In this document: piece by piece, positions 7,569 through 59,685 of the stretch
Layout of the letters: every line of letters starts with the position of its first letter
Numbering within the stretch: position 1 is the first letter of the stretch
Source of the DNA: Escherichia phage TH12
Length of the DNA stretch: 64,000 nucleotides
Sequence record: MT446390.1
Strand: one strand, 5' to 3'
Program-made: the position numbers and the translations under genes
The notes under the pieces: model-generated
Databases searched by the model: none
The model's input: the letters and a program-made list of their open reading frames with translations, nothing else
What the model was told of the DNA's origin: nothing

Positions 7569-7569
7569 T

Positions 7570-27237: not shown

Positions 27238-27711
27238 ATGTTATTATCTGGCAAATTATACAAAGAAGAAAAACAAAAATTTTATGATGCACAGAACGGT
27301 AAGTGTCCTATTTGCCACCGTGAATTAGACCCTGATGTTCAAGGTAACCATCTTGACCACGACCACGAGTTAAACGGGCCAAAAGCCGGTAGAGTTCGTG
27401 GATTACTCTGTAATCTGTGCAACGCAGCAGAAGGCCAAATGAAGCATAAGTTCAACCGTTCTGGTCTTAAAGGTCAAAACGTTGATTACCTCGAATGGCT
27501 TGAAGCTCTTCTTGCTTATTTGAAACAAGATTATTCTGATAATAATATCCATCCTAATTTTGTTCCAGACAAAACTAAAGAGTTCTCAAGACTAGGTAAA
27601 GAGGAAATGATGGCTGAGATGCTTCAAAGAGGATTTGAATATACTGAATCTGATACTAAAACACAATTAATAGCTTCATTCAAAAAGCAGCTTAGAAAGA
27701 GTTTAAAATGA
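27238..27711 (+). CDS. 49: endonuclease VII (Holliday-junction resolvase)
   Basis: MLLSGKLYKEEKQKFYDAQNGKCPIC ... near-identical to T4 gp49. Confidence 0.95.
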   Translation: MLLSGKLYKEEKQKFYDAQNGKCPICHRELDPDVQGNHLDHDHELNGPKAGRVRGLLCNLCNAAEGQMKHKFNRSGLKGQNVDYLEWLEALLAYLKQDYSDNNIHPNFVPDKTKEFSRLGKEEMMAEMLQRGFEYTESDTKTQLIASFKKQLRKSLK

Positions 27712-29525
27712 AAATTGAAAAAGAAATTGAAGGATTAATTTATAAAACTAATAAAGATCTTTTGAACGAGAATGCTAATAAAGATTCTCGTGTTTTTCCA
27801 ACTCAACGGGACCTTATGGCTGGTATTGTGTCTAAGCACATTGCCAAAAATATGGTCCCGTCTTTTATTATGAATGCGCATGAAAGCGGAATCATTCATA
27901 TGCATGATATTGATTATTCTCCTGCTCTTCCGTTTACTAATTGTTGTTTAGTCGATTTAAAGGGGATGCTTGAGAATGGATTTAAATTAGGCAATGCTCA
28001 AATTGAAACGCCTAAATCGATTGGTGTTGCTACTGCAATTATGGCACAAATTACTGCACAAGTTGCTTCCCATCAGTATGGCGGAACTACATTTGCGAAT
28101 GTCGATAAAGTTCTTTCTCCTTATGTTAAACGTACATACGCTAAACATGTTGAAGATGCAGAAAAATGGCAAATACCAGACATTCTGAATTATGCTCAAT
28201 CTAAAACAGAAAAAGACGTATACGATGCATTCCAAGCTTATGAATATGAGGTAAATACTCTTTTTAGTTCAAACGGTCAAACGCCTTTTGTAACAATTAC
28301 ATTTGGTACTGGAACTGATTGGACCGAACGAATGATTCAGAAAGCAATTCTGAAAAATCGGATTAAAGGTCTCGGTCGTGATGGAATAACTCCTATTTTT
28401 CCTAAACTTGTTATGTTTGTTGAAGAAGGTGTTAATCTTTATAAAGATGATCCGAACTATGATATTAAACAACTTGCGTTAGAATGTGCAAGCAAAAGAA
28501 TGTATCCTGACATTATTTCGGTTAAGAATAATAAAGCTATTACTGGTTCTTCAGTTCCAGTTTCTCCAATGGGTTGCCGTAGTTTCTTGAGTGTATGGAA
28601 AGATTCGACTGGTAATGAAATTCTTGATGGACGTAATAATCTCGGTGTTGTAACACTGAATCTTCCTCGCATCGCGTTAGATTCTTATATTGGAACACAG
28701 TTCAATGAACAGAAATTTGTTGAGCTATTTAATGAACGAATGGATCTGTGCTTTGAAGCCTTGATGTGTAGAATTAGTTCCTTAAAAGGAGTTAAAGCGA
28801 CTGTTGCTCCTATTCTTTACCAAGAAGGTGCATTCGGGGTTCGTCTTAAACCTGATGACGACATAATTGAGTTATTTAAAAACGGTAGAAGTTCAGTGTC
28901 TTTAGGATACATTGGTATTCACGAATTGAATATTCTTGTCGGACGTGATATTGGACAAGAAATTTTAACTAAAATGAATGCTCATCTTAAACAGTGGACC
29001 GAAAGAACTGGATTTGCTTTTAGCTTATATTCTACTCCTGCTGAAAACCTTTGTTATCGCTTCTGTAAACTTGATACAGAAAAATATGGAAGTGTAAAAG
29101 ATGTCACTGATAAAGGCTGGTACACTAACAGTTTCCATGTTTCAGTAGAAGAAAATATTACTCCGTTTGAAAAGATTTCTCGTGAAGCCCCATATCATTT
29201 CATTGCGACAGGCGGTCACATTTCTTATGTTGAACTTCCTGATATGAAAAATAACCTAAAAGGTCTTGAGGCTGTATGGGATTATGCTGCACAACATTTA
29301 GATTATTTTGGTGTTAATATGCCAGTAGATAAATGTTTTACATGTGGAAGTACTCATGAAATGACTCCTACTGAAAATGGATTTGTTTGTTCAGTTTGCG
29401 GAGAAACTGATCCTAAAAAGATGAACACTATAAGAAGGACCTGCGGTTATTTGGGAAATCCGAACGAGCGCGGATTTAATCTAGGCAAAAATAAAGAAAT
29501 CATGCATAGGGTTAAACACCAATGA
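27708..29525 (+). CDS. nrdD: anaerobic ribonucleotide reductase, uninterrupted
   Basis: 605 aa, C-terminal glycyl-radical motif RTCGYLG; matches T4 NrdD. Confidence 0.95.
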   Translation: MKIEKEIEGLIYKTNKDLLNENANKDSRVFPTQRDLMAGIVSKHIAKNMVPSFIMNAHESGIIHMHDIDYSPALPFTNCCLVDLKGMLENGFKLGNAQIETPKSIGVATAIMAQITAQVASHQYGGTTFANVDKVLSPYVKRTYAKHVEDAEKWQIPDILNYAQSKTEKDVYDAFQAYEYEVNTLFSSNGQTPFVTITFGTGTDWTERMIQKAILKNRIKGLGRDGITPIFPKLVMFVEEGVNLYKDDPNYDIKQLALECASKRMYPDIISVKNNKAITGSSVPVSPMGCRSFLSVWKDSTGNEILDGRNNLGVVTLNLPRIALDSYIGTQFNEQKFVELFNERMDLCFEALMCRISSLKGVKATVAPILYQEGAFGVRLKPDDDIIELFKNGRSSVSLGYIGIHELNILVGRDIGQEILTKMNAHLKQWTERTGFAFSLYSTPAENLCYRFCKLDTEKYGSVKDVTDKGWYTNSFHVSVEENITPFEKISREAPYHFIATGGHISYVELPDMKNNLKGLEAVWDYAAQHLDYFGVNMPVDKCFTCGSTHEMTPTENGFVCSVCGETDPKKMNTIRRTCGYLGNPNERGFNLGKNKEIMHRVKHQ

Positions 29526-29992
29526 ATTATGATAGATTTTATCCTTGCGATTTTGTGAATGGTCCTGGTTGTAGGGTCGTTCTTTTCGTTACGGGGTGTT
29601 TGCATAAATGCGAAGGGTGTTATAATAAATCAACATGGAATGCTAGAAATGGTATTCCATTCACTGGTGAAACACTAGAACAATTAATTGAATGTTTGAA
29701 TAATTATTATATAGAAGGATTAACTATAACCGGAGGAGACCCTCTCTATCCTGATAACCGAGATGTTATTCATTACATTGTTCAAACAGTAAAAAATCTT
29801 TATCCCAATAAAAGCATTTGGTTGTGGACAGGATATAAGTTTGAAGATATTAAACAGCTAGAAATGCTTAAATATGTTGATGTTATTATTGATGGGAAGT
29901 ATGAGAAAAATCTTCCGACCAAAAAGCTGTGGCGAGGATCAGATAATCAGCGACTTTGGTCAAATACCGATGGGGTGTGGAAACATGATTAA
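29522..29992 (+). CDS. nrdG: anaerobic RNR activating enzyme (radical SAM)
   Basis: CLHKCEGC CxxxCxxC motif; ATGA-coupled to nrdD. Confidence 0.9.
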   Translation: MNYDRFYPCDFVNGPGCRVVLFVTGCLHKCEGCYNKSTWNARNGIPFTGETLEQLIECLNNYYIEGLTITGGDPLYPDNRDVIHYIVQTVKNLYPNKSIWLWTGYKFEDIKQLEMLKYVDVIIDGKYEKNLPTKKLWRGSDNQRLWSNTDGVWKHD

Positions 29993-34174: not shown

Positions 34175-34175
34175 T

Positions 34176-35004: not shown

Positions 35005-35148
35005 ATGATTATATTTTTAGGTGTGACCATATTGATATTAGCCTTCTATCTATTCACTAGGGCGTGCTGGATAGGTTTCTTTAGTGCCCCAGATGGATTA
35101 ATTTCTGTGGTTTTATTTTGCATTGCGATAACGGCGTTAGACTTATGA
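35005..35148 (+). CDS. small membrane protein (47 aa), absent from track
   Basis: ATG after TGAGGAAA; ATGA-coupled to gene 47. Confidence 0.4.
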   Translation: MIIFLGVTILILAFYLFTRACWIGFFSAPDGLISVVLFCIAITALDL

Positions 35149-41785: not shown

Positions 41786-44497
41786 ATGAAAGAATTTTAC
41801 TTAACGGTTGAACAGATTGGTGATTCAATTTTTGAACGTTACATCGATTCTAATGGCCGTGAACGTACTCGTGAAGTAGAATATAAACCATCGTTGTTTG
41901 CACATTGTCCAGAAAGTCAGGCTACTAAATATTTCGATATCTACGGTAAACCTTGTACTCGTAAGTTGTTCGCTAATATGCGTGATGCCTCCCAATGGAT
42001 TAAACGCATGGAAGATATCGGACTTGAAGCACTTGGCATGGACGATTTCAAATTGGCGTATTTGTCTGACACTTATAACTATGAAATCAAATACGACCAT
42101 ACAAAAATTCGTGTGGCTAACTTCGACATCGAAGTAACATCTCCGGATGGGTTCCCTGAGCCGTCACAAGCAAAACATCCGATTGATGCTATCACCCATT
42201 ATGACTCAATTGACGACAGGTTCTACGTATTTGATCTATTGAATTCTCCGTATGGTAATGTAGAAGAATGGTCTATCGAAATTGCGGCTAAGCTTCAAGA
42301 ACAAGGCGGTGATGAAGTTCCATCTGAAATTATCGATAAAATCATTTATATGCCATTCGATAACGAAAAAGAATTGTTGATGGAATATCTCAACTTCTGG
42401 CAACAGAAAACTCCTGTCATTTTGACTGGATGGAACGTTGAGTCATTTGATATTCCATATGTGTATAACCGAATCAAGAATATTTTTGGCGAATCTACTG
42501 CGAAACGTTTATCACCACATCGTAAAACTCGTGTTAAAGTTATCGAAAACATGTATGGTTCTCGTGAAATCATTACATTGTTCGGTATCTCTGTTCTTGA
42601 TTACATTGACCTTTACAAAAAATTCTCTTTTACCAATCAACCGTCGTATTCTCTGGATTACATTTCAGAATTTGAATTGAACGTTGGTAAACTGAAATAT
42701 GACGGCCCTATTTCTAAGCTTCGTGAAAGCAATCACCAACGATATATAAGCTATAACATCATCGACGTGTATCGTGTATTGCAAATTGATGCTAAGCGCC
42801 AGTTCATCAACTTGAGTTTGGACATGGGTTATTATGCTAAGATACAGATTCAATCTGTGTTTAGCCCAATTAAAACATGGGATGCTATTATTTTTAATAG
42901 CCTTAAAGAGCAGAACAAGGTGATTCCACAAGGTCGTTCTCACCCGGTTCAACCTTATCCTGGCGCTTTTGTTAAGGAACCTATTCCAAATCGATACAAA
43001 TATGTAATGAGTTTCGACCTTACATCTCTGTATCCAAGTATTATTCGCCAAGTGAATATTAGCCCAGAAACAATAGCAGGAACGTTTAAAGTAGCTCCAT
43101 TGCATGATTATATTAACGCAATCGCTGAACGTCCTTCAGATGTGTACAGTTGCTCCCCTAACGGCATGATGTATTATAAAGACCGTGATGGTGTAGTTCC
43201 AACTGAAATCACTAAGGTCTTTAATCAACGTAAAGAACATAAAGGTTACATGCTTGCAGCTCAACGTAATGGTGAAATAATTAAAGAGGCATTGCATAAT
43301 CCTAATCTTTCTGTTGACGAACCATTAGATGTTGATTATCGTTTCGACTTCACTGATGAGATTAAAGAAAAGATTAAAAAGTTGTCTGCTAAATCTCTTA
43401 ATGAAATGTTGTTTAGAGCTCAACGTACTGAAGTTGCAGGTATGACTGCACAGATTAACCGTAAATTGCTCATCAACTCACTTTATGGTGCACTTGGCAA
43501 CGTTTGGTTCCGTTATTATGATTTGCGTAATGCTACTGCAATCACAACATTTGGTCAAATGGCTTTACAATGGATTGAACGTAAAGTTAATGAATATCTG
43601 AACGAAGTTTGTGGTACAGAAGGTGAAGCTTTCGTTCTTTATGGTGATACAGACTCTATTTACGTATCTGCAGATAAAATTATTGATAAGGTTGGTGAAT
43701 CTAAATTCCGTGATACCAACCATTGGGTAGACTTCTTAGATAAGTTCGCACGTGAACGTATGGAACCAGCTATTGATAAAGGTTTCCGTGAAATGTGTGA
43801 ATACATGAACAATAAACAACACTTAATGTTCATGGACCGAGAAGCTATCGCTGGTCCTCCGCTTGGTTCTAAAGGTATTGGCGGATTCTGGACTGGTAAG
43901 AAACGTTATGCATTAAACGTGTGGGATATGGAAGGAACCAGATACGCTGAGCCTAAACTCAAAATCATGGGTCTCGAAACACAGAAATCTTCGACCCCTA
44001 AAGCAGTACAGAAAGCTCTTAAAGAATGTATTCGCCGTATGCTTCAAGAAGGTGAAGAATCATTACAAGAATATTTTAAAGAGTTTGAAAAAGAATTCCG
44101 TCAATTGAATTATATTAGCATCGCGTCGGTATCTTCTGCGAATAACATTGCTAAATATGACGTTGGTGGATTCCCTGGTCCTAAATGTCCGTTCCATATT
44201 CGTGGAATTCTGACATATAACCGAGCTATCAAAGGTAATATTGATGCTCCACAAGTTGTAGAAGGCGAAAAGGTATACGTTCTGCCTTTACGTGATGGAA
44301 ACCCGTTCGGTGATAAATGTATCGCATGGCCTTCTGGTACTGAAATCACAGATTTAATTAAAGACGACGTACTTCATTGGATGGACTACACTGTTCTCCT
44401 TGAGAAGACATTTATTAAACCACTTGAAGGATTCACATCAGCAGCGAAACTCGATTACGAGAAGAAAGCATCTCTGTTCGATATGTTCGATTTTTGA
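41786..44497 (+). CDS. 43: DNA polymerase gp43 (family B), RB69-type
   Basis: 903 aa; exo motif FDIEV, pol motifs SLYPS and YGDTDS; matches recalled RB69 gp43. Confidence 0.98.
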   Translation: MKEFYLTVEQIGDSIFERYIDSNGRERTREVEYKPSLFAHCPESQATKYFDIYGKPCTRKLFANMRDASQWIKRMEDIGLEALGMDDFKLAYLSDTYNYEIKYDHTKIRVANFDIEVTSPDGFPEPSQAKHPIDAITHYDSIDDRFYVFDLLNSPYGNVEEWSIEIAAKLQEQGGDEVPSEIIDKIIYMPFDNEKELLMEYLNFWQQKTPVILTGWNVESFDIPYVYNRIKNIFGESTAKRLSPHRKTRVKVIENMYGSREIITLFGISVLDYIDLYKKFSFTNQPSYSLDYISEFELNVGKLKYDGPISKLRESNHQRYISYNIIDVYRVLQIDAKRQFINLSLDMGYYAKIQIQSVFSPIKTWDAIIFNSLKEQNKVIPQGRSHPVQPYPGAFVKEPIPNRYKYVMSFDLTSLYPSIIRQVNISPETIAGTFKVAPLHDYINAIAERPSDVYSCSPNGMMYYKDRDGVVPTEITKVFNQRKEHKGYMLAAQRNGEIIKEALHNPNLSVDEPLDVDYRFDFTDEIKEKIKKLSAKSLNEMLFRAQRTEVAGMTAQINRKLLINSLYGALGNVWFRYYDLRNATAITTFGQMALQWIERKVNEYLNEVCGTEGEAFVLYGDTDSIYVSADKIIDKVGESKFRDTNHWVDFLDKFARERMEPAIDKGFREMCEYMNNKQHLMFMDREAIAGPPLGSKGIGGFWTGKKRYALNVWDMEGTRYAEPKLKIMGLETQKSSTPKAVQKALKECIRRMLQEGEESLQEYFKEFEKEFRQLNYISIASVSSANNIAKYDVGGFPGPKCPFHIRGILTYNRAIKGNIDAPQVVEGEKVYVLPLRDGNPFGDKCIAWPSGTEITDLIKDDVLHWMDYTVLLEKTFIKPLEGFTSAAKLDYEKKASLFDMFDF

Positions 44498-44537
44498 TAT
44501 AATGCCATGGACGGTAAACTAATTAAATGAGAGAAAT

Positions 44538-45173
44538 ATGAAAACTACACCAATCACTATCGCTATTGACGCAATCGTAAAACAAGCTTCATCTCTTGCC
44601 ACTATGGCTAAAGTAATTAGTCAAAACTCTGCCCGATATAATGCTATTCTTGAAACTCTTCGTCGCCCTGGACTGAGTAATTATGAAAGCCGAGTAATTA
44701 TTACAGGTGTTGGTAAGAACGCTAATATCGCAACTAAAGCTTCCGAGACTTTTGCTTCACTAGGTATTCCTAGCATGTATTTGAACACCGGGCATTATTC
44801 TCATGGCGACGCAGGGTTTATTGCACCTAATGATGTATTAGTTCACATCAGTCGTTCTGGTAAGACTGAAGAAATGATAGGTGTTGCTAAACATCTTCGT
44901 ATGATTCGTCCTCAGGTTAAACAGATTCTGTTACATTGTAACCCTGACATTCCGCAAGAATACGAAGCTCTTTTTGATTATACGTTCTGTACAGGCATCG
45001 CGGTAGAGGTTGATGAGAATTCTCTGGCTCCGACCATGTCCACTACATTGTTGTTAGCGCTTATCGATACGTTTGCTATCAACCTTTCGTCTGAACGTGG
45101 ATTTACCTCTAATGACTTCCTTAAGTTCCACCCTGGTGGTGCACTAGGTGCCATGTTACGAGGCGAACAATGA
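44538..45173 (+). CDS. SIS-domain sugar-phosphate isomerase (arabinose-5-phosphate isomerase-like)
   Basis: SIS motifs ITGVGKN and SRSGKTEE. Confidence 0.7.
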   Translation: MKTTPITIAIDAIVKQASSLATMAKVISQNSARYNAILETLRRPGLSNYESRVIITGVGKNANIATKASETFASLGIPSMYLNTGHYSHGDAGFIAPNDVLVHISRSGKTEEMIGVAKHLRMIRPQVKQILLHCNPDIPQEYEALFDYTFCTGIAVEVDENSLAPTMSTTLLLALIDTFAINLSSERGFTSNDFLKFHPGGALGAMLRGEQ

Positions 45174-45313
45174 AAGCAATAACAATAGGACTTTTACTAT
45201 TGATGCTTGTCATGACTATCTACTGGAGCTTAACGGCTCCAGTAATGATTCCGACTCTTATAATCGGATGGATTATGATTGGACTACAAACAAAGTATGA
45301 ATGCTTTAACTAG
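45170..45313 (+). CDS. small membrane protein (47 aa), absent from track
   Basis: ATGA-coupled to isomerase gene; hydrophobic throughout. Confidence 0.35.
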   Translation: MKAITIGLLLLMLVMTIYWSLTAPVMIPTLIIGWIMIGLQTKYECFN

Positions 45314-45326
45314 AATAGTGTACAAT
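45299..45326 (+). promoter_or_regulatory. candidate MotA-dependent middle promoter
   Basis: gaaTGCTTTA, 12 nt, TACAAT, about 30 nt upstream of ATG 45355. Confidence 0.35.
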
Positions 45327-45354
45327 ACACCTACTTACCAATGAGGACCACAAC

Positions 45355-47040
45355 ATGAAAAAAGCTGTTATTCTTGGTGCTGGACTGGCAACTCGTTTGT
45401 ATCCAATAACGCACCATATTCCTAAGGTGCTTGTTAACTATAAACAAGACACTATTCTGAGCAATTTGTATACAATTTATTCTGACCTTGGTGCAGATGA
45501 AATTATTGTAGTAGTTCATTCAAAATTTGTTGAAACTGTTCGAGCTTATTGTGAGCAAGAAGGGTTCAATGTGACTATTCGTACAGTTGATGAAGCGTAT
45601 GGTTCTGCTTATGCTCTTGCTAAATTATACAAAGATTTAGATGGCCATAATGTAATTGTTAACTGGTGTGATATTATTCCTGATTTTGGTTCATGGTCTT
45701 GGAATGTTAACGCAATCTATGTTAAGGGTGACGAATGTCGATATAATTTCGACGGTGAAAATATCACTAGCGTAGGTTCAACAGGTGGTAATGTTGTAGG
45801 AATTTATCAGTTCAAAGACTGGGAATTCTATATGGGTTCTACTGATGAGGAAATTCATGAATACTGCAAAGGACGTGATTTCGTAGAATTCCTTTACGGC
45901 AGCGCATTCAATAAATCAGAGCTTATGAATCTAATTGATTTAGGTGATATGCCTAAACTTGAAAAAGCTCATGAAGTTCGTGAACTTAATCGTAGTTTTA
46001 ATGCAGTTGAAATTGGTGAAGAAACTGTAACTAAATTCGCATTAACCGAACAGGGCCGAGCTCTTCAGAAAGATGAGATTTCATGGTATCTTAAAGTGAA
46101 ATCAGATTCAGTTCCTCAGTTAGTTTCTGTTAATGAAAATAACTTTGAAATGGAACGCATTAAAGGTAAGCCGGCATTTGAATATATTAAATCCAAATCG
46201 AGTCTTGCTCGTCCACAAATTGTTGATGCAATTTTAGATGCACTGAAATTCAGCACAGACACTTATTTTGTAAGTCCTGAAACTGTTCGTCGTGATTTCA
46301 CTAAAGAATTCTATACGAAAGTTATTGATCGTTGTGAAAGCATTCAACCATTGATTGATTCATTTGGTAAAATCACACATGTGAACTACACTAAGATTGG
46401 ACGTCTGAAGCCAATGCTGAAACAAGCTTTAGAACACCTTATTCGTTATCATAACCGTTCTCAGGGACAGTACTCTGTTATTCATGGTGACCCGAACTTC
46501 AGTAATACTATGATTACTGATAACGGCGAAGTCAAGTTTATCGACCCTCGTGGATATTTTGGCGAAACCAAGATTTACGGGCCAAAATTGTACGATGAAG
46601 CTAAAGTGCTTTATGCTGTTTCAGGTTATGATGAATTCAATGCTAATCCGACCTGGGGACAGTTTACTATTGATGAAACAACTTGTAATGTGACTATTAA
46701 CATCAATCCATTAATTTACAAATATGGAAAGATGAGTTCGTTTAACGAGTATCATCATTTGGCGGTGGCAATTATCTGGATTGCATTAGGTGGTTATTTC
46801 AAGAATAATCCACTTAAAGCGGTAGCCGCATATTATAAAGGTATGGAACTTCTGACTAAGCAATTACGCAACATGGGCCGTGTACTTCAAGACGGCTCTA
46901 TTAGTTATGACGTAGCAGAACCTGTAACGGCTACTCTGATTACAAAAAATCCTGGTAAATGGGTACTAACTGATAAAGAAACTGGTGTTTCCTATCGTCC
47001 AATCGGTGGCGATATCACTCATCAATGGGAACGAATCTAA
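45355..47040 (+). CDS. bifunctional sugar-1-phosphate nucleotidyltransferase / anomeric sugar kinase fusion (MurU-AmgK-like)
   Basis: N-terminus GAGLATRLYP; C-terminus HGDPNFSNTMI ... FIDPRGYFG. Confidence 0.65.
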   Translation: MKKAVILGAGLATRLYPITHHIPKVLVNYKQDTILSNLYTIYSDLGADEIIVVVHSKFVETVRAYCEQEGFNVTIRTVDEAYGSAYALAKLYKDLDGHNVIVNWCDIIPDFGSWSWNVNAIYVKGDECRYNFDGENITSVGSTGGNVVGIYQFKDWEFYMGSTDEEIHEYCKGRDFVEFLYGSAFNKSELMNLIDLGDMPKLEKAHEVRELNRSFNAVEIGEETVTKFALTEQGRALQKDEISWYLKVKSDSVPQLVSVNENNFEMERIKGKPAFEYIKSKSSLARPQIVDAILDALKFSTDTYFVSPETVRRDFTKEFYTKVIDRCESIQPLIDSFGKITHVNYTKIGRLKPMLKQALEHLIRYHNRSQGQYSVIHGDPNFSNTMITDNGEVKFIDPRGYFGETKIYGPKLYDEAKVLYAVSGYDEFNANPTWGQFTIDETTCNVTININPLIYKYGKMSSFNEYHHLAVAIIWIALGGYFKNNPLKAVAAYYKGMELLTKQLRNMGRVLQDGSISYDVAEPVTATLITKNPGKWVLTDKETGVSYRPIGGDITHQWERI

Positions 47041-47426
47041 TGCACCGTGTAGAAAACATGCTTAATCTTTGTTTTGATGTCGATGATTGTATAACAGAGT
47101 GGAATAACAATCGTGATTACGTGAACTTCAAACCAGACGTCGAAATGGTGTCTGCCATTAATGCCCTGTATGATGCAGGGCATACCATAACGCTTTACAC
47201 TGCTCGTGGTATGAAGTCAGTAGGTCCTGGTCGTATAGCAATTGACATTCTCCCAAGTCTGATTCAGAACTTGGCAAACATTGGCTTGAAGTACCATAAT
47301 TTGCTAACACATAAACCAGTATATGATTGGATTATCGACGACAAAGCTATGCGTCCTGACGAATTCAAAGCTCTTATGAATAAAGGCGAATTCGAAACAT
47401 TTAAATCGTATAAACCGAATCTATAA
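47040..47426 (+). CDS. HAD-superfamily phosphatase-like protein
   Basis: HAD motif I FDVDDCIT near N-terminus; start may be 47025 or 47058. Confidence 0.55.
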   Translation: MHRVENMLNLCFDVDDCITEWNNNRDYVNFKPDVEMVSAINALYDAGHTITLYTARGMKSVGPGRIAIDILPSLIQNLANIGLKYHNLLTHKPVYDWIIDDKAMRPDEFKALMNKGEFETFKSYKPNL

Positions 47427-47484
47427 TAATTTAAGTAAGACCTGCAAAAAAACCATCGCATCAATTAACGCGAGATGCAAAAAA

Positions 47485-48645
47485 ATGAATACTTTTAAAA
47501 TCGGAACGAATTTTGATTTAGCTCTTCTTGATAAAATCGTAGAGCTCAATAAAACCTATCCTAATAGCTTGATAAACGAAGTATATGGCTCTACAAGAGA
47601 AATGGCTTTTGTAGCAGCCAGACCTGATTTTAGGCTTCCTGACGTTGACAAAAAGATGTTAGAAGACTACGTTAAACGTTGTAACGAATTAGGTATTTGC
47701 TTTAACTATACACTCAACACGATAAATCCTGGTTCAAAAAGAGAACTAGTTGAGTGGAAGAAGAAAGCTATTCAGGATTATGTTCAGTATCTTTGGTCAA
47801 TAGGCGTATGGCGTATTACTATCGCTAACCCTGTTGTTATGGAAATTGTTCGTGAAGTCAATAAAGATATTGAGATTGAAGTTTCAACAATTCTACATGT
47901 CGATGCGGTAACTCAAATCAAATACTTACATGACCAATATAACATCAAAAAGGTCTGTTGCGGAATTCATAAGAACCGTTCAGTTTCTTTCCTGAAGCGT
48001 GCAGCAGAGTTTTGCAATAAGAACAATATAATATTTGAAGTTCTTGTAAATGAGTTCTGTTCTAATGCTGGTAAAGGGTATACAACACATTGTAGTTATC
48101 GTGACTCTTGCTATATTTTCCATAGTACTGATGTTACAGCTGATGATGCTAAATCCTTAAATGGATATCCAATGCAACACTGCATTAAAGCTCGTGATAC
48201 AGACCCATTTAACTGGTTGAGAACTCGTTTTGTTCGTCCTCAAGATTTGAAACTTTATAATGATATTGGTATCACTCAATTCAAAGTTTCAGGACGTACA
48301 GGTAGCACAGACTACATTTTGAAAGTTCTTGAAGCATACGCTTCTGAAAAGTTTGAAGGTAATTTGTTAGAACTGTGGAAGCCTTTAGAGACTATTTTCA
48401 CTCTTGAAAATGAGACTGAGTTTTCACATACAGTAAATATTGAAACCTCTTTGTTAGATGGCTTTTTAGAAAAAAGGTGGTTCAGACATCCAGATTTTGA
48501 TTGTGCTAATGAAATCTGTGGGTCAACGTGTACATATTGTGAAAGGTATTATAAACGTCAATTATCTAAAAACGGGTTAGCAGAAAACTCCATATCTATT
48601 ATTGATATAACTAACTCTGATGACGCTTTGAGGTACCCGGAATGA
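47485..48645 (+). CDS. Cys-rich putative Fe-S enzyme (386 aa); weak peptidase-U32-like features
   Basis: YTLNT motif, C-terminal CxxxCxxC; family call is tentative. Confidence 0.35.
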   Translation: MNTFKIGTNFDLALLDKIVELNKTYPNSLINEVYGSTREMAFVAARPDFRLPDVDKKMLEDYVKRCNELGICFNYTLNTINPGSKRELVEWKKKAIQDYVQYLWSIGVWRITIANPVVMEIVREVNKDIEIEVSTILHVDAVTQIKYLHDQYNIKKVCCGIHKNRSVSFLKRAAEFCNKNNIIFEVLVNEFCSNAGKGYTTHCSYRDSCYIFHSTDVTADDAKSLNGYPMQHCIKARDTDPFNWLRTRFVRPQDLKLYNDIGITQFKVSGRTGSTDYILKVLEAYASEKFEGNLLELWKPLETIFTLENETEFSHTVNIETSLLDGFLEKRWFRHPDFDCANEICGSTCTYCERYYKRQLSKNGLAENSISIIDITNSDDALRYPE

Positions 48646-48881
48646 TTTCTAGAAAAAGTTTTAATTATAAACTTAACGAAGAGATTTTGACTATGAAACT
48701 GAACACTAACGAACAAATTCTTAAAAAGGCCCTTATGGGCCTGTTTGAAACCAAAGCGGCTAAAGTGATTAAAGAACCTGTTCAATTGGAATACTACACT
48801 GATGCATTCCTTCATAGTGTTCTTGGAAGTATAGATTCTGAAGCTTTACGTTATATCAACATTGTCAAGAAATTCAAATAA
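48642..48881 (+). CDS. hypothetical protein (79 aa)
   Basis: ATGA overlap. Confidence 0.45.
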   Translation: MISRKSFNYKLNEEILTMKLNTNEQILKKALMGLFETKAAKVIKEPVQLEYYTDAFLHSVLGSIDSEALRYINIVKKFK

Positions 48882-48923
48882 GCTTTATGAATTGAGTATA
48901 TAATAAATTGTATTGAGGTAAAT

Positions 48924-49640
48924 ATGGGAAAACATAACACAATGAAATATATCAAAGCCGCAGATTTTCAAACCGCATTTAAAGCAGTCAATCGTGAAAT
49001 TTTAGAAAACCCCGAATTCGTAACTGATTCTCGTATTGGACGTTGTAATGAAATTGGGTCTATGACAGTAGTTGTTGACACTCCATCATCATTCAAAATG
49101 ACCGACCCACGTATTAACCGCATCTCTTATGAATATGCCGAAGACTTCTGGAAGTTTATGATTTCTGGTGGTACCAACGCAGAAGAAGCGTTTAAGGCAT
49201 ATCCTAATGTCGCTAAATTTATTTCTAAACCAAAATCAGATGTTTTGCCGGCGAACTTCAACACTTTCTATGGTCCTCGCATTGCGGCCCAATTACCAAC
49301 TCTTCTAAAAGAACTTAAAGAAAAACCTAACTCTCGAAGAGTTGTGTTCCAAATTCTAGAAAGTTCTGATCAGGCTTTGCTTGATTCGGACGAAACACTT
49401 GAATATCCATGTACTGACTCAGTAACTTATTATATTCGTGATGGTAAGCTTTATACCCACTGTCATATGCGTTCTCAGAACTGTGCTGTTGTTATGCAGT
49501 TGGATTTTTATCTCCAAGGAAAATTACTTCATTATATCGCTAACGAATGTGGTGTAGAAGTTGGTGATTATACTCATACCATGGTAAGTGCCCATGTGTT
49601 TGAACGTGATTTTGATTATGTTAAAGGATTCCTTGACTAA
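48924..49640 (+). CDS. 42: thymidylate-synthase-fold pyrimidine hydroxymethylase (dCMP hydroxymethylase, gp42 position), divergent
   Basis: NSRR, YPCTD, MRSQN..D motifs; position between 43 and uvsX. Confidence 0.6.
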   Translation: MGKHNTMKYIKAADFQTAFKAVNREILENPEFVTDSRIGRCNEIGSMTVVVDTPSSFKMTDPRINRISYEYAEDFWKFMISGGTNAEEAFKAYPNVAKFISKPKSDVLPANFNTFYGPRIAAQLPTLLKELKEKPNSRRVVFQILESSDQALLDSDETLEYPCTDSVTYYIRDGKLYTHCHMRSQNCAVVMQLDFYLQGKLLHYIANECGVEVGDYTHTMVSAHVFERDFDYVKGFLD

Positions 49641-50539
49641 TGGCTATTTTCCGCGTACCAATCTTGAGTATGCGGTCTTATGAAACTGGACAGTATGCTA
49701 TCCTTAAGGATGGCAACTTCCAACTTCATTTGCACCGTGCTAATCCGGGTGATGTGATTACATATCCACGTAATGCATCTGATATTAAAGAATGCGAACG
49801 TCTTTTCCCAGAATTTAAGTTTGTTCCATTATGGTATAAAGATAACGCGTATAACACTCGTAAATATTTCTGGACTGAAAATGAATTTGTGGTTGATTCA
49901 TTAATTGATTATTATGATTGTGATTTTCTAATCACAGATATCACTGGTTATGGCGGCGCTTTTGATGTGGAATTCAATTTCAATATCACTGCAGACCCTA
50001 ATAAACCACGTTTTTATATTGATGAATTCTTAAAAACCGACATGTTGTCTGTTAATCGTTCACTTCAAACTACTGTGTTGAATGAACGTCAAAAAGGAGT
50101 GCTGGTTAACGCAGGTGCAGATGGTAATAAGATTATCGTAACGCAGAAAGTTATACGTCCTTCCATCATGCAGCGTCTTGTAGGTGATTTGGCTCCTATT
50201 CATCTAGATGGTATTTTTCATCCATTTCGAATTAGTGACCCATGTTATCGTTTTGAACAAGTGGTTGAATGTGCAATTCAATTAGGTCAACCGCTTTATA
50301 TAACCGATCCAAATAATAGCTTCGACAGAAATAAGTATCCTGAAGAAGCGCTGATTCGAATTTTTAAACCAACTAAAACTGAGTACTATCAAATTCTTAA
50401 AGGACGTCCGAAAATTCAATATTTCGAAAATCCTGAAGAAGTATTCCATCCAGGTCTTGGTGAGTTCATCTACTTTAATGCTTTAATTTCTTCGCCGTAT
50501 AATATACCTAAATACGAAGATGTCGTAATCGAGGAATAA
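49640..50539 (+). CDS. hypothetical protein (299 aa) at the T4 beta-gt position; candidate DNA glycosyltransferase
   Basis: Position only; no resemblance to T4 beta-gt. Confidence 0.35.
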   Translation: MAIFRVPILSMRSYETGQYAILKDGNFQLHLHRANPGDVITYPRNASDIKECERLFPEFKFVPLWYKDNAYNTRKYFWTENEFVVDSLIDYYDCDFLITDITGYGGAFDVEFNFNITADPNKPRFYIDEFLKTDMLSVNRSLQTTVLNERQKGVLVNAGADGNKIIVTQKVIRPSIMQRLVGDLAPIHLDGIFHPFRISDPCYRFEQVVECAIQLGQPLYITDPNNSFDRNKYPEEALIRIFKPTKTEYYQILKGRPKIQYFENPEEVFHPGLGEFIYFNALISSPYNIPKYEDVVIEE

Positions 50540-50540
50540 A

Positions 50541-51089
50541 ATGGCTAAAATTATTTTAGTAGACGGCCCAGATAATGCTGGTAAAACAACTTTCATTAAT
50601 GACATAATGGAAATTAGTGAAAGATATGTAAAGATTGATTTCCCTAAACGAACAGTTGATGGACGTTTCGATGTTAAGTCTCGAAATGAAGTTGGTTGTT
50701 TCGAAACGATGTTGAATTATTTAGACCCTACTAAGATTTATCTGTTAGACCGTGGATATATTAGTAACTGGGTTTATGGACGTATTCGACAAGATGCGGA
50801 CTCGGTTCTTGACGTTTATGAACAGGACTATGTTCGTCTTTGCCAAAACCATGATGTGTTCACAATTATTTTAACACGTAACGAAATGACTGAAAGTTTT
50901 GAAGACGACCTTATTACTTTGTCTTCATTCGGTTTTAATACAGTCGTTTCACATTTTGAAGAGTTTGCAATTCATAACAAAATCCAAACATATCAATTAC
51001 TTAATCATGATGGTGCTAACAAAGTTATAGGATTTAATGCAAGCGAACGTAATTGTTTGATTACAGAAATCATCAAATGGGCTCGTTAA
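50541..51089 (+). CDS. P-loop kinase-like protein (182 aa)
   Basis: Walker A DGPDNAGKTT at N-terminus. Confidence 0.5.
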   Translation: MAKIILVDGPDNAGKTTFINDIMEISERYVKIDFPKRTVDGRFDVKSRNEVGCFETMLNYLDPTKIYLLDRGYISNWVYGRIRQDADSVLDVYEQDYVRLCQNHDVFTIILTRNEMTESFEDDLITLSSFGFNTVVSHFEEFAIHNKIQTYQLLNHDGANKVIGFNASERNCLITEIIKWAR

Positions 51090-51187
51090 GAGCCATTTAA
51101 AGTTTTAAATGCTGTATAACCCTTAGTATATAATCGTCTTATCTTTTAAACATGAGTAAAATATAATGATGCCTATGGAAAAATACA

Positions 51188-52360
51188 ATGTCTGATTTAA
51201 AATCTCGTCTGATTAAAGCTTCTACTTCTAAAATGACTGCGGACTTGACTAAGTCTAAGCTGTTTAATAATCGTGATGAAGTCCCTACTCGTATTCCGAT
51301 GTTGAATATCGCACTAGGTGGTGCTCTGAATGCAGGATTGCAATCAGGCTTGACTATTTTTGCTGCACCTTCTAAACACTTTAAAACGCTGTTTGGACTA
51401 ACTATGGTTGCAGCGTATATGAAGAAATATAAAGATGCAATCTGTTTGTTTTATGACTCAGAATTTGGTGCTTCAGAATCTTATTTTCGTTCAATGGGTG
51501 TTGATTTAGACCGTGTAGTTCATACTCCGATTCAATCTGTCGAACAACTTAAAGTTGATATGACTAATCAGCTTGACGCGATTGAACGCGGTGATAAAGT
51601 TATTATCTTTATCGATTCAATCGGTAATACTGCATCTAAGAAAGAAACCGAAGATGCATTGAATGAGAAAGTCGTAGGTGATATGTCTCGTGCTAAGGCA
51701 CTTAAATCTCTGTTCCGTATTGTGACTCCTTATCTGACTATTAAAGATATTCCATGTGTTGCAATCAACCATACAGCAATGGAAATCGGCGGATTGTATC
51801 CTAAAGAGATTATGGGCGGTGGTACAGGTATTCTTTATTCTGCCAACACGGTATTTTTTATCTCTAAACGTCAGGTTAAAGAAGGTACAGAATTGACCGG
51901 TTATGACTTCACGTTGAAAGCGGAAAAATCTCGTACAGTTAAAGAGAAATCTACTTTCCCGATCACGGTTAATTTTGATGGCGGTATTGACCCATTCAGT
52001 GGCTTGTTAGAAATGGCAACTGAAATTGGTTTTGTAGTTAAGCCTAAAGCCGGGTGGTATGCTCGTGAATTCCTTGACGAAGAAACAGGCGAAATGATTC
52101 GTGAAGAGAAATCATGGCGTGCTAAAGCTACTGATTGTGTAGAATTCTGGGGACCTTTGTTTAAACATAAGCCTTTCCGAGATGCAATTGAAACTAAATA
52201 TAAACTAGGTGCTATCTCTTCTATTAAAGAAGTTGATGACGCTGTTAACGACCTTATTAATTGCAAAGCAACAACTAAAGTTCCGGTTAAAGCTTCTGAT
52301 GCTCCGTCTGCAGCAGATATAGAAAACGACCTTGACGAAATGGAAGATTTCGATGAATAA
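51188..52360 (+). CDS. uvsX: RecA-like recombinase UvsX
   Basis: MSDLKSRLIKASTSK ... matches T4 UvsX (390 aa). Confidence 0.95.
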   Translation: MSDLKSRLIKASTSKMTADLTKSKLFNNRDEVPTRIPMLNIALGGALNAGLQSGLTIFAAPSKHFKTLFGLTMVAAYMKKYKDAICLFYDSEFGASESYFRSMGVDLDRVVHTPIQSVEQLKVDMTNQLDAIERGDKVIIFIDSIGNTASKKETEDALNEKVVGDMSRAKALKSLFRIVTPYLTIKDIPCVAINHTAMEIGGLYPKEIMGGGTGILYSANTVFFISKRQVKEGTELTGYDFTLKAEKSRTVKEKSTFPITVNFDGGIDPFSGLLEMATEIGFVVKPKAGWYAREFLDEETGEMIREEKSWRAKATDCVEFWGPLFKHKPFRDAIETKYKLGAISSIKEVDDAVNDLINCKATTKVPVKASDAPSAADIENDLDEMEDFDE

Positions 52361-55444: not shown

Positions 55445-55813
55445 ATGAAAAAATTAATCACTTTAGCAATGGTATTTGGATTAACCGGATGTGGTGCCCA
55501 TGGCTTTATCCCTAATAATGTTGGCCAATTGATTTATAACCCGAATGTTAAACAGTACAACCAACCTAAAGTTGAAGTGGAAGACCCGGTTACTGTAGGT
55601 AATCGAATGATTCAAGCTGATGCCCATGCTCAACGTTATCGTGATTCTGATACTGTAGCATTGTCAAAAGAACAACGCGTTAAAGAACATTGTCTACAGG
55701 CTACTGAAATCGCATTCATTCGCTATGTTGAAACAACTGGTAAAGAGCCTTCCCAGAAACAAATCGCGAATAACTACGTCCAGTGTATTGAACGTTTAAA
55801 CAAATTTAATTAA
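55445..55813 (+). CDS. predicted lipoprotein (122 aa; lipobox LTGC)
   Basis: Signal peptide ending in lipobox Cys. Confidence 0.55.
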   Translation: MKKLITLAMVFGLTGCGAHGFIPNNVGQLIYNPNVKQYNQPKVEVEDPVTVGNRMIQADAHAQRYRDSDTVALSKEQRVKEHCLQATEIAFIRYVETTGKEPSQKQIANNYVQCIERLNKFN

Positions 55814-55874
55814 TTGGTTTACGCCAAAGTTAAAACAAGATACTATAAACATAACAAATCAAGAGGAAATTAAC

Positions 55875-56123
55875 ATGGAATTATTCGTAGCTAGTTCAGT
55901 AGCAGTTTTAATCGCAGGTATTGGTTCAATCATCATTTACATGTTGCCTTGGGTAATCGCACTTATTCGTGGCACAAAAAGCACAACAGCAATCTTCTTT
56001 GTATCTTTACTCTTTAACTGGACGATGATTGGTTGGATTGGAACTTTAATTTGGTCTATCGTTGCCGAAAAGAAATCTGCTCAGCAGCCTCAACAAGTAA
56101 TTATTATTCGCGAAAAAGAATAA
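55875..56123 (+). CDS. two-helix inner-membrane protein (82 aa); Imm-like size and topology
   Basis: Two hydrophobic helices. Confidence 0.45.
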   Translation: MELFVASSVAVLIAGIGSIIIYMLPWVIALIRGTKSTTAIFFVSLLFNWTMIGWIGTLIWSIVAEKKSAQQPQQVIIIREKE

Positions 56124-56186: not shown

Positions 56187-56480
56187 ATGAAAAAGTTATC
56201 ATTGGCAGCAATCTTACTCGCAGTATCATGTGCACCAGCTCCAGTTACAGCAGGTTATGATAAAGACCTCTGTGAGTGGTCAATGACTGCAAATCAAGAA
56301 GATGTTGAACAACAAATCTTCTCTGATATCGTGAACATCACTAAACGAGACCGTCCTAATATGGTTAATAAAGTTGTTGAACAACTTAAGTCTGGCGGTA
56401 TCATGCAGTACAACTATGTTTTGTATTGTGACCCTAATTTCGATAACAAAGATATCGTAACCGAAATCACAGGTGAGTAA
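56187..56480 (+). CDS. sp: periplasmic Spackle-like protein (97 aa)
   Basis: Signal peptide then GYDKDLCEWSMTA, matching my recollection of T4 Sp. Confidence 0.6.
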   Translation: MKKLSLAAILLAVSCAPAPVTAGYDKDLCEWSMTANQEDVEQQIFSDIVNITKRDRPNMVNKVVEQLKSGGIMQYNYVLYCDPNFDNKDIVTEITGE

Positions 56481-56481
56481 T

Positions 56482-57132
56482 ATGATTTATTATATGCACA
56501 AAAATGCACCATTTAAATATGGTAAATTTCCTAATGCACAATGTTATAATATAACGCCGAATGAAAATAATAACGGATACCATATTGGTGTAATTTTTGT
56601 AATTGTTAAAGATAATGAAATCGTTGCCTGGGCAGATTTTAAAGGTACAACATATGATGTTAATCCTGTGCCTTTCACATATTACAATATAATGGATTTG
56701 GCATATGATTATAATTGGTTTACTCATGATACTCTGGCACATGTTGAAGGCGTAGGATTTGATATCTCTTATTCTAGTTATTCATTATGTCCTATGAGCC
56801 GAGCTCACGGTAAAGATGTATCATATCTTTCAATTCGGAAACGTGTAAACTTCAAACGTAGTACAGAGTATGTTGGTGGACTCTTTGTTAAAGATAATAA
56901 AATAACTCGTATTAGTTATCCTTTAAGTGTAGGTCAAAAAGATGTTGATGTTGATTTAGACTTAACTGAAAGTAACATTAATCGTATTGCTTCTGTATAT
57001 TTTGATATCGATGAAAAAATTGTAGTGTGTGGATACGAATTACCACCTGAAGAAAAGGTTGAAGCAATTGAAGTCGAATTAGAAATTTCTGTTGATGACC
57101 AAATATTTAATGCATTTATGAATCGAGGTTAA
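56482..57132 (+). CDS. hypothetical protein (216 aa)
   Basis: ATG 2 nt after upstream stop. Confidence 0.5.
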   Translation: MIYYMHKNAPFKYGKFPNAQCYNITPNENNNGYHIGVIFVIVKDNEIVAWADFKGTTYDVNPVPFTYYNIMDLAYDYNWFTHDTLAHVEGVGFDISYSSYSLCPMSRAHGKDVSYLSIRKRVNFKRSTEYVGGLFVKDNKITRISYPLSVGQKDVDVDLDLTESNINRIASVYFDIDEKIVVCGYELPPEEKVEAIEVELEISVDDQIFNAFMNRG

Positions 57133-59074: not shown

Positions 59075-59163
59075 AATATCTCCTTAGTTACCTATTATTT
59101 ATTACGCTTTATAAAATTAATGTTAGAATTAAACTCTCTTACACTGAATTGAAAGGAAAAATA

Positions 59164-59685
59164 ATGGCGCACTTTAACGAATGTTCACAACTTATTTCTG
59201 GTGTTGATAAAGCAGAAGAAGCTTATTTTAATGCTCTGATTCACGAAGATAAAGACCCACTGCAGGTAATGCTTGATATGCAGAAATCTTTACAGGTTCG
59301 TTTGGCAAATGACAAGCCTGAACATAACAAACATCCTGATGAATTGGCTACTGCCGGTGATGTTGTTGATTGGCTGCGTAATCAGAAAGATTATATTGAT
59401 GATGAATTCCGTGAACTGTTGACTTCACTTGGCGGTATGAGCAATGGTGAAAAAGCCGCCAGCAGTGTATGGAAGCCGTGGAAAGCACAACATGCCGAAT
59501 ATCGTAATCGTCGTATCGATGAACTGTCTCCTGAAGACCAGCTTGAAATTAAATTCGAGATGATTGATATCCTCCACTTTGTTCTGAACATGTTCCAAGG
59601 CCTTGGACTTACTGCAGAAGAAATCTTTAAACTTTACTACTTGAAAAACCAACACAACTTTGAACGCCAGGATAATGGTTACTAA
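59164..59685 (+). CDS. 56: dCTP pyrophosphatase gp56-like
   Basis: MAHFNECSQLISGVD... recalled as T4 gp56-like; position. Confidence 0.6.
   Translation: MAHFNECSQLISGVDKAEEAYFNALIHEDKDPLQVMLDMQKSLQVRLANDKPEHNKHPDELATAGDVVDWLRNQKDYIDDEFRELLTSLGGMSNGEKAASSVWKPWKAQHAEYRNRRIDELSPEDQLEIKFEMIDILHFVLNMFQGLGLTAEEIFKLYYLKNQHNFERQDNGY

Follow-up and report, generated by a model that had tools for sequence, protein, structure and literature searches.

The window analysed here is a 64,000-nucleotide stretch of the genome of Escherichia phage TH12 (MT446390.1), and our subject is the block of genes at 44538-51089 on its plus strand, which runs tightly packed from the DNA polymerase gene to uvsX of this Mosigvirus (RB69-like) phage. 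We conclude, with a probability that we put at roughly 0.85, that the block is a cytosine hypermodification module through which cytosine becomes mono- or di-arabinofuranosyl-5-hydroxycytosine in DNA, and it belongs to an already published, experimentally supported system, that of RB69 gp45-gp55 and the Afh proteins of HY126. We further propose, at about even odds, that the Peptidase_U32-family protein encoded in the block (hereafter U32) is an O2-independent, prephenate-dependent hydroxylase of pyrimidine C5 that acts on DNA precursors or on DNA and represents a phage subfamily. Neither the U32 gene nor the open reading frame (ORF) of 79 amino acids (aa) in the same block carries an assigned role in the description of RB69 and HY126 by Lee et al. 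(2026; PMC13326640), and the explanation that we offer for U32 is specific, testable and apparently unreported.

The RB69-type DNA-arabosylation locus

The block matches 151 phage records from end to end at 97-99% identity, with Escherichia phage CCU7 at the top (99.3%), and it corresponds gene for gene to RB69 gp45-gp55, so that we reject the idea of a chance feature. The genes compared with RB69 share 89-99% aa identity, except the 47-aa ORF, which is shorter in the RB69 annotation. The HY126 Afh system likewise has the same genes in the same order, and the hydroxylase and phosphatase of the window are near-identical to the HY126 proteins 9iqc and 9iqw. The view that the locus is an RB69-type site of DNA arabosylation is borne out. 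All seven ORFs named in an earlier sequence-based reading of this DNA (the original prediction) are present on the plus strand where it had placed them, and profile searches of their products returned the enzyme classes that it had predicted, i.e., a SIS-domain isomerase, a fused nucleotidyltransferase/kinase, a HAD phosphatase, a thymidylate synthase (TS) family protein and a P-loop kinase. Two small ORFs, at 45170-45313 (47 aa) and 48642-48881 (79 aa), are to be added to that list. Starts and stops overlap or abut at 45170/45173, 47025/47040, 48642/48645, 49640/49640 and 50539/50541. The RB69 record (RefSeq NC_004928) splits the transferase gene (p046/p047, 3098-3998) and the gene of the bifunctional enzyme (p052/p053, 6595-8281), and otherwise we see no difference of substance; the corresponding 299-aa and 561-aa genes are unbroken in the window, which supports the published view that the RB69 splits are sequencing errors. 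The same record labels the HAD protein "phosphoheptose isomerase" and U32 "peptidase", names that on the same view are annotation errors.

Arabinose on RB69 DNA was described by Thomas et al. (2018), who reported it as arabinosyl-hydroxymethylcytosine (ara-hmC) and named ORF055c and ORF53_52c as candidate genes, and three later papers have resolved most of the pathway steps (Lee et al., NAR 2026, PMC13326640, preprint June 2025; He et al., Nat Chem Biol 2026; Mahler et al., Cell Host Microbe 2025), so the claim that the enzyme assignments were unresolved does not hold. Mass spectrometry (MS) and nuclear magnetic resonance (NMR) of RB69 DNA place the arabinose in ether linkage straight on C5, i.e., on 5-hydroxycytosine (Lee et al., PMC13326640); arabosylated 5-hydroxycytosine has been shown in RB69, NP and other phages by liquid chromatography-MS and NMR, and the ara-hmC assignment is termed erroneous in a later paper (PMC13390438). 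Given its 97-99% identity to RB69-type relatives, TH12 itself would be expected to carry arabinosyl-5-hydroxycytosine in its DNA.

The proposed pathway in TH12 has a sugar branch and a base branch. In the sugar branch, the SIS enzyme may convert ribulose-5-P to arabinose-5-P, and the remaining steps would be those shown for near-identical proteins: the kinase domain of the 561-aa enzyme would phosphorylate arabinose-5-P at C1, the HAD phosphatase would take the 5-phosphate off the resulting arabinose-1,5-bisphosphate, and the nucleotidyltransferase domain would join arabinose-1-P and UTP to UDP-arabinofuranose. This order follows the work of He et al. (2026) as related by Lee et al. (PMC13326640), through whose account we cite it: HY126 AfhE combines the activities of an arabinose-5-P kinase and a UDP-arabinose pyrophosphorylase, AfhF, a phosphatase that depends on Mg, turns the 1,5-bisphosphate into the 1-phosphate, and the route (arabinose-5-P, 1,5-bisphosphate, 1-P, UDP-arabinofuranose) passes through no free pentose. 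In the base branch, again on the precedent of near-identical proteins, the TS homologue would hydroxylate dCMP at C5 with flavin and O2, and a phage deoxynucleoside monophosphate (dNMP) kinase together with host enzymes would take the product, 5-hydroxy-dCMP (5hodCMP), to the triphosphate for incorporation. The 299-aa enzyme may then place the first arabinose on the 5-hydroxyl and a second transferase of the RB69 gp3 type the second sugar, and the thymidylate-kinase-like protein may handle the modified nucleotide.

Domain searches find in the window each enzyme class of a predicted phage-encoded route to UDP-arabinofuranose. The isomerase matches Pfam SIS (38.8 bits) with a single SIS domain of the KdsD/KpsF type and no CBS domains; it scores 79-111 bits against the NCBIfam KpsF/KdsD/GutQ models, under their equivalog cut-offs, matches phrog_5670 "arabinose 5-phosphate isomerase" at E about 2e-116 and is 96% identical to RB69 gp55. 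Its proposed reaction, from ribulose-5-P to arabinose-5-P, is a computational assignment in Lee et al. (2026; PMC13326640) as well. The 561-aa enzyme has an N-terminal NTP_transferase domain (37 bits, residues 3-99) and weak APH/fructosamine/choline-kinase matches at residues ~308-409; its NCBIfam matches are archaeal GlmU, AglF and MurU-like proteins, and PDB 1jyk is found at 2.6e-5. The HAD protein matches PDB 9iqw (E 7.8e-88) and 1xpj (5e-10) and the NCBIfam EcbF-BcbF capsule biosynthesis phosphatase (49 bits), and a GmhB-like Foldseek match is reported for it (Lee et al. 2026, PMC13326640). A sequence search against the PDB gave no close solved structure for U32, the 561-aa protein or the 299-aa protein.

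The TS homologue, the only ThyA-family ORF that a TS-family profile detects in the window, matches Pfam Thymidylat_synt at 57 bits and PDB 9iqc/9ir2 and 9iqu at E 2.9e-160 and 6e-157, respectively, and is ~97% identical to the HY126 enzyme 9iqc. Relative to E. coli ThyA and T4 gp42 it keeps C146 and shows L143E, D169N, N177D, E58F and Y209F. RB69 gp48, its equivalent, binds flavin, has D169N as a predictive signature and, together with the dNMP kinase, brings 5-hydroxydeoxycytidine into E. coli DNA with 18O from 18O2 (Lee et al., PMC13326640). The gene that the original prediction called a divergent member of the hydroxymethylase family is of the TS family, as supposed, but is predicted to encode a dCMP 5-hydroxylase rather than a hydroxymethylase, and the acceptor would be 5-hydroxycytosine, with an ether at C5, and not hydroxymethylcytosine.

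These data bear directly on the alternative contained in that prediction, in which a divergent dCMP hydroxymethylase makes hydroxymethylcytosine and free arabinose is re-phosphorylated at C1, activated and transferred to give ara-hmC. The 2018 report of ara-hmC in RB69 and the membership of the gene in the thymidylate synthase/hydroxymethylase family speak for it, and the phosphatase and kinase steps still appear in this form in Table 1 of Lee et al. (2026; PMC13326640). However, the RB69 NMR and MS data refute it for that phage, the assignment has been called erroneous (PMC13390438), the window enzyme, ~97% identical to the flavin-bound HY126 enzyme, has N at position 169 and F at 58 where T4 gp42 keeps D169, and a free-pentose route is at odds with the activities of AfhE on arabinose-5-P and AfhF on the bisphosphate, as these are related by Lee et al. 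We regard ara-hmC in TH12 as very improbable. The mechanism of the original prediction is partly supported: its outline is right, and it erred on the acceptor base, on the free pentose with the phosphatase acting before the kinase, and on the state of the enzyme assignments.

The 299-aa protein, described before as an unknown at the position of the T4 beta-gt gene, does lie there and is a GT-B glycosyltransferase (GT) of the GT4-like type, putatively the first arabinosyltransferase on the cytosine 5-hydroxyl; by sequence it matches no PDB entry, not even T4 beta-gt. No other ORF in the window matches the profile of this first transferase, a search that did not extend to the gp3 family itself. 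The 182-aa kinase matches phrog_761 "thymidylate kinase" (3e-44) and, weakly, the P-loop of dTMP kinases. Homologues of it accompany the GT in phages JS98 and Maestro and in two jumbo-phage contigs (L026 and L027; L numbers denote our comparison loci), and genes of the Thymidylate_kin type lie near U32 relatives in L013, L016, L017, L022 and L023; it may be the kinase for the modified nucleotide.

Several points weigh against the pathway as drawn here for arabinosyl-5-hydroxycytosine. The roles in TH12 are predicted from homology to RB69 and HY126 proteins, and the isomerase and the TMP-kinase-like protein are putative assignments by homology. Single transferases were inactive on 5-hydroxycytosine (5hoC) DNA, the first arabosyl transfer was not reconstituted, and whether the arabosyl acceptor is a nucleotide or DNA was left undecided (Lee et al., PMC13326640).

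The comparison with T4 places the system within a familiar framework. In both, a TS-fold enzyme modifies dCMP before replication and a dCTPase removes dCTP, and in both the TS-fold gene has as its neighbour, in the interval from gene 43 to uvsX, a gene for a GT-B enzyme that uses a UDP-sugar donor. The differences lie in the chemistry, which is hydroxylation with flavin and O2 (D169N, E58F) in the window and folate-dependent hydroxymethylation in T4, and in the sugar, which is phage-made arabinofuranose in the window and host UDP-glucose in T4. T4-type glucosyltransferases are absent here: the window has a GT4-like GT-B protein at the beta-gt position and lacks alpha-gt between genes 55 and 47, where, as had been claimed, no ORF of alpha-gt size exists (none of >=120 aa in 33975-35118). 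The sugar branch has its own parallel in the bacterial NDP-heptose pathway, which uses the isomerase GmhA, the kinase/nucleotidyltransferase HldE and the bisphosphate phosphatase GmhB. The likeness extends to a SIS isomerase, an anomeric kinase that acts on a sugar phosphate, a HAD enzyme that removes the distal phosphate, a nucleotidyltransferase, and the fusion of kinase and transferase in the window as in HldE; the differences are that the window uses a pentose and a kinase of the APH/choline-kinase type for DNA modification, while the heptose pathway uses a kinase of the ribokinase type and serves lipopolysaccharide. As already published, the cluster explains the resistance of RB69-type phages to many restriction enzymes and CRISPR nucleases and the absence of recombination with T4.

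A candidate oxygen-independent hydroxylase

The 5-hydroxyl group has a single known source, which requires O2, and these phages infect Enterobacterales of the gut. With an O2-dependent source of hydroxyl and the destruction of dCTP, replication in a natural anoxic habitat should fail unless an oxygen-free route exists. We propose that U32 would be that route: in RB69-type phages it would stand beside the flavin/O2-dependent 5hodCMP synthase as its anaerobic counterpart and provide 5-hydroxycytosine in anoxic hosts. The proposal draws on the family to which U32 belongs, its conservation and invariant Cys residues, its chorismate mutase (CM) partner in other phages, the displacement of genes between phages, and the presence of NrdD and NrdG. 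The last two, the anaerobic ribonucleotide reductase and its activase, are encoded in the window (NRDD 572 bits with Gly_radical; Fer4_12 165 bits with Radical_SAM), which equips the phage for oxygen-free dNTP synthesis.

The original prediction saw in U32 a Cys-rich iron-sulfur (Fe-S) candidate and left it without a role; the richness in Cys stands, with 10 invariant residues, and the protein is now placed in the Peptidase_U32 family. Its structural model (pLDDT 92.5) is a TIM-barrel with the U32 protein 5d88, to our knowledge the only one solved, as its best PDB match (TM 0.69 on target). RlhA is the best E. coli paralogue by profile (hhalign E 2.8e-5 over 202 columns), and the identity to the E. 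coli paralogues is 15-23%, that of a distinct subfamily. The subfamily profile retrieves 1,696 cluster representatives at E <=0.001 and 471 clusters at 50% identity at E <=1e-30, so the question reaches well beyond RB69-type phages. Most GenBank records call such proteins collagenase-like peptidases, after the family name, and "peptidase" or "collagenase" appears in many of them; but every U32 member whose function has been dissected takes part in hydroxylation, the family has no known catalytic mechanism of a peptidase, and the genomic context is nucleotide metabolism throughout, which makes a peptidase hardly credible.

RlhA is required for ho5C2501 of 23S rRNA, depends on Fe-S biogenesis and prephenate, and needs two Cys of the U32 motif and two C-terminal Cys. 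TrhP provides a prephenate-dependent, O2-independent route to ho5U34 in tRNA alongside the O2-dependent TrhO, and UbiU/UbiV hydroxylate ubiquinone precursors independently of O2 with prephenate as the oxygen donor. The phage protein shares with these enzymes the U32 domain and the TIM-barrel and, with RlhA, a C-x5/6-C-Y-I-x-H motif in the profile alignment and a C-terminal Cys cluster, and it differs in its altered Cys spacing and in its presumed substrate, a deoxynucleotide or DNA. The C5 hydroxylation of cytosine that is needed here is the reaction for which RlhA is required.

Among 42 subfamily members with identities as low as 46%, the residues C158, C177, C192, C203, C209, H213 and C233 are invariant, as is the C-terminal cluster C340-x4-C345-x3-C349-x2-C352, for a total of 10 Cys and 1 His, and the profile alignment places C203-x5-C209-Y-I-F-H of U32 onto C169-x6-C176-Y-I-S-H of RlhA. 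U32 is also the most conserved protein of the module, at 83/84/79% identity to its counterparts in phages LC53/KLB31/Thanatos-2 compared with 36-86% for the others (transferase 48-67%, kinase 39-71%), and it differs from that of RB69 at 38 nucleotides (nt) and 6 aa. The match to RlhA (E 2.8e-5) and the RlhA-like, essential-looking Cys cluster could also mean that U32 modifies RNA of the host or the phage, in the way of RlhA (C2501) and TrhP (tRNA U34), and tunes translation apart from any DNA modification. We consider this improbable, given that DUF3656 and the long C-terminal region of RlhA are absent (386 vs 653 aa), that dNMP and sugar-nucleotide genes flank U32 in every phage that we examined, and that its relatives adjoin genes for dCMP deaminase, thymidylate and deoxynucleoside kinases, 5'-nucleotidase (NT5C), and GT and TAGT DNA glycosyltransferases.

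Further, indirect support for a prephenate-dependent hydroxylase comes from CM, whose product is prephenate. At least six phage lineages other than that of TH12 have a CM_2 gene beside U32; such neighbours occur in Winkler-, Kanagawa-, Marfa- and Bragavirus and in Shewanella phage Thanatos. The CM_2 scores are 32.8-46.8 bits (gathering threshold 27) for Serratia LC53, Enterobacter Entb_45, Klebsiella KLB31 and F48, Proteus Pm5461 and Shewanella Thanatos-2, and all six proteins keep R10, R27, K38, E51, S73 and Q77, which we take to be the AroQ catalytic set. In Thanatos-2 the pair is found at another place in the cluster, from which we conclude that U32 and CM move together. A tblastn search found CM in 51 records of T4-like phages, whose hosts are Enterobacterales and Shewanella, and in all 40 of the matches listed it lies beside the TS gene, the U32 gene or both. 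This linkage parallels the genetic dependence of the cellular U32 enzymes on prephenate. In most other genera the phage CM would feed prephenate to U32 and escape the feedback control of the host, while in TH12 the host PheA/TyrA would be the supplier. By a rough estimate, ~62,000 cytosines per genome and a burst of ~100 require several million hydroxylations per infected cell, a demand that would explain why a phage carries its own CM.

At the CM position of the other genera the window has the 79-aa ORF, which was compared with L001 6158-6502, L002 6158-6397, L008 6783-7022, L011 3658-3903, L009 7134-7391 and L012 3899-4285; Klebsiella phage Clarke_MM3 (L010) has nothing at this position. The ORF has no NCBIfam match, no Pfam match even at E 10 and an hhalign probability of 0.09 against a profile of the six phage CMs, and we reject it as a CM; it appears to be either unrelated to CM or decayed. 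It differs from its RB69 counterpart at 20 nt and 9 aa, which indicates relaxed constraint compared with U32. The sole match of the CM profile in the window is a 248-aa ORF without a family at 62938-63684 on the plus strand (E 0.014, non-significant), and this is probably noise.

Displacement between the TS-type hydroxylase and the proposed U32 hydroxylase among phages

The GT family of the window is found with a TS-type hydroxylase alone (JS98, Maestro, L026 and L027), with U32 and no ThyA-family ORF within 7-8 kb (L017, L018 and L021-L024) or, as in the window, with both. Such a distribution is what one would expect if TS and U32 provide one and the same hydroxyl for glycosylation. AfhE, AfhF, TS, transferase and kinase are present in E. 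coli phage JS98 and Acinetobacter phage Maestro, both of which lack U32 and CM; Maestro has the isomerase, and JS98 has an unverified 166-aa ORF at the isomerase position. The two jumbo-phage contigs have the same transferase family, a D169N TS homologue, Flavodoxin_2 and the kinase, without U32. We examined nine distinct metagenomic phage loci with U32 relatives (49-57% identity) over 7-8 kb on each side. In six of them U32 is adjoined by a homologue of the 299-aa transferase (profile E 1e-37 to 7e-27), in the order GT, SIS, AfhE-like and U32 in L017, and in the others it lies beside the dCMP deaminase, kinase and NT5C genes mentioned above. No ThyA-family ORF was detected within this distance in any of the nine, even at E 10. 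We propose that in many uncultivated phages U32 would be the sole hydroxylase that feeds the same family of DNA glycosyltransferases.

These loci also help to weigh a further explanation, that U32 is a reductase, whether of the flavin used by the TS-type hydroxylase or of a sugar or heterocycle. This agrees with the need of the TS-type hydroxylase for reduced flavin (PMC13326640), with secondary Foldseek matches of the TIM-barrel to flavoenzymes such as MTHFR, with the many invariant Cys, which suit electron transfer, and with the one mention of RB69 gp50 in Lee et al. (2026; PMC13326640), a Table 1 entry that reads "sugar or heterocycle reductase". It does not explain why U32 relatives adjoin this GT family at loci that lack a TS-type hydroxylase within 7-8 kb, nor does it account for the co-inherited CM; moreover, jumbo phages with TS and without U32 have in Flavodoxin_2 (51 bits) an obvious flavin reductase, and no U32 member is known as one. 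We judge a reductase to be unlikely, if clearly less so than an RNA-modifying enzyme, and retain the prephenate-dependent hydroxylase as the preferred role of U32.

A number of observations count against that role. In air the TS homologue alone is enough (Lee et al., PMC13326640), and direct hydroxylase activity of RlhA or TrhP has not been shown biochemically. The Cys spacing of U32 departs from the canonical four-Cys motif, which binds a 4Fe-4S cluster (UbiU C169, C176, C193 and C232), MAFFT and hhalign give different Cys registers, and the subfamily profile retrieves UbiU weakly. No recognisable CM was found anywhere in the 64-kb window. The U32-only metagenomic loci show no more than 7-8 kb of sequence to either side, and L021-L024, which make up four of the six transferase-U32 loci, share one architecture and are probably related. 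Lastly, Dhakaviruses such as JS98 infect E. coli without U32, so U32 would be accessory, not obligatory, in phages of facultative anaerobes.

The TS-type hydroxylase occurs in 57 Acinetobacter-phage and 22 Rhizobium-phage records, and no phage of either genus is among the 221 U32 matches listed. Both genera are aerobes. A strict rule by which host aerobiosis determines the presence of U32 fits these phages and fails for the Dhakaviruses of E. coli, and we discard it.

The pairing proposed for TH12 would have precedents in TrhO/TrhP, UbiI-H-F/UbiU-V and NrdAB/NrdDG, in each of which an O2-dependent and an O2-independent enzyme yield one product, as is proposed here for viruses of facultative anaerobes, with the difference that the pairing here is drawn from gene content and displacement patterns alone. 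We found no paper that links U32, prephenate or CM to phage hydroxycytosine; He et al. (2026) and Mahler et al. (2025) lay outside this search and may have priority. If the proposal is true, prephenate-dependent hydroxylation extends from RNA and quinones to DNA, and U32 gains its first role in DNA modification and the organic oxygen donor prephenate its first viral use. Glycosylated 5-hydroxypyrimidine DNA would then be predicted in many uncultivated phages of anaerobes, and the state of modification and the sensitivity to host defences may vary with oxygen and with the hydroxylase carried, which matters for phage therapy and engineering.

Some of the comparison loci show further features near these genes. 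In L018 (8001-10000; 13073-14179 is also cited for this locus) the U32 relative is directly followed by a TET-associated glycosyltransferase (33.9 bits, threshold 27.5), with UDP-galactopyranose mutase and a dUTPase/DCD gene close by, which has the appearance of a separate glycosyl-hydroxypyrimidine system based on U32. Right after U32 in L017 (9145-10804) come a 248-aa protein of the DAHP_synth_1 family (150 bits; KDO8P/DAHP synthase) and an NAD-dependent epimerase; the former could either make another sugar from arabinose-5-P or feed the shikimate pathway towards prephenate. A radical-SAM gene, often of the SPASM type, lies no more than a few genes from the U32 relatives of uncultivated phages in L013 (1-249), L014 (12160-13185), L022 (4980-6011) and L024 (4972-6000), and its product is a possible maturase or electron partner. 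L014 has in addition a second, very divergent U32 paralogue at 13227-14360. In the jumbo-phage contigs the Flavodoxin_2 gene (L026 1-123; L027 5739-6293, 51 bits in L027) is directly beside the 5hoC-type TS homologue and likely encodes a dedicated flavin reductase for the hydroxylase, and the Mosigvirus clusters are without a gene of this type. E58F and Y209F are present in all 5hoC-type TS homologues examined (window 48924-49640, L026 4944-5840 and L027 6303-7004); they are consistent with folate chemistry having been lost and might make the D169N signature more precise.

Features of the block and other genes of the window

The features discussed are collected in Table 1.

Table 1. Genes of the arabosylation block and related genes elsewhere in the window, with the roles predicted for their products.
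Feature	Equivalent	Coordinates	Strand	Size and basis
SIS-domain D-arabinose-5-phosphate isomerase (predicted)	RB69 gp55	44538..45173	+	211 aa; domain and phrog matches
Hydrophobic mini-protein	RB69 gp54	45170..45313	+	47 aa; between isomerase and bifunctional enzyme
Bifunctional kinase/nucleotidyltransferase	RB69 gp52:53, HY126 AfhE	45355..47040	+	561 aa; intact ORF
HAD-type phosphatase	RB69 gp51, HY126 AfhF	47025..47426	+	133 aa; PDB 9iqw match
Peptidase_U32-family protein (U32)	RB69 gp50	47485..48645	+	386 aa; Pfam 42.2 bits, cut-off 22.4
79-aa ORF	RB69 gp49	48642..48881	+	phrog_8601; at CM position of other genera
5-Hydroxy-dCMP synthase (predicted TS-fold, flavin/O2-dependent dCMP C5 hydroxylase)	RB69 gp48	48924..49640	+	238 aa
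GT-B (GT4-like) glycosyltransferase	RB69 gp46:47	49640..50539	+	299 aa; adjoins hydroxylase gene
Thymidylate-kinase-like P-loop kinase	RB69 gp45	50541..51089	+	182 aa; phrog_761
nrdD and nrdG (anaerobic ribonucleotide reductase and activase)		27708..29992	+	Pfam NRDD, Gly_radical, Fer4_12, Radical_SAM
dCTPase candidate, gp56-like, outside the block		59149..59685	+	Pfam dUTPase_2 29 bits, partial match

The dCTPase candidate would clear dCTP so that only the modified nucleotide enters DNA; in RB69 the dCTPase is p028 (Lee et al. 2026, PMC13326640). A scan of 44300-51300 found 20 promoter-like sites compared with 26 in shuffled sequences and terminators at the level of chance, and is uninformative.

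The 47-aa ORF, whose start overlaps the stop of the SIS gene in an ATGA, encodes a hydrophobic protein of the membrane type within an operon for cytoplasmic nucleotide-sugar enzymes. It is kept in place in Klebsiella phage KLB31, in Serratia phage LC53, where it is annotated as transmembrane, and in the Dhakavirus JS98 (orf44), and it matches no Pfam family. The block had been described as standing in place of imm, which is contradicted by an imm homologue at ~55800-56120 on the plus strand (phmmer E 4e-31 to T4 Imm), downstream of gene 41; in T4 and JS98 imm adjoins gene 43. By its sequence match, imm is relocated, not replaced. The idea that the 47-aa ORF is a relocated Imm domain was rejected, having no Pfam support and with the true imm at ~55.8 kb. 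Further along, at 56473-57132 on the plus strand, lies a gene of the counter-defence against ADP-ribosylation of DNA, whose 219-aa product matches the AdfA anti-DarT factor over its full length (Pfam 391 bits).

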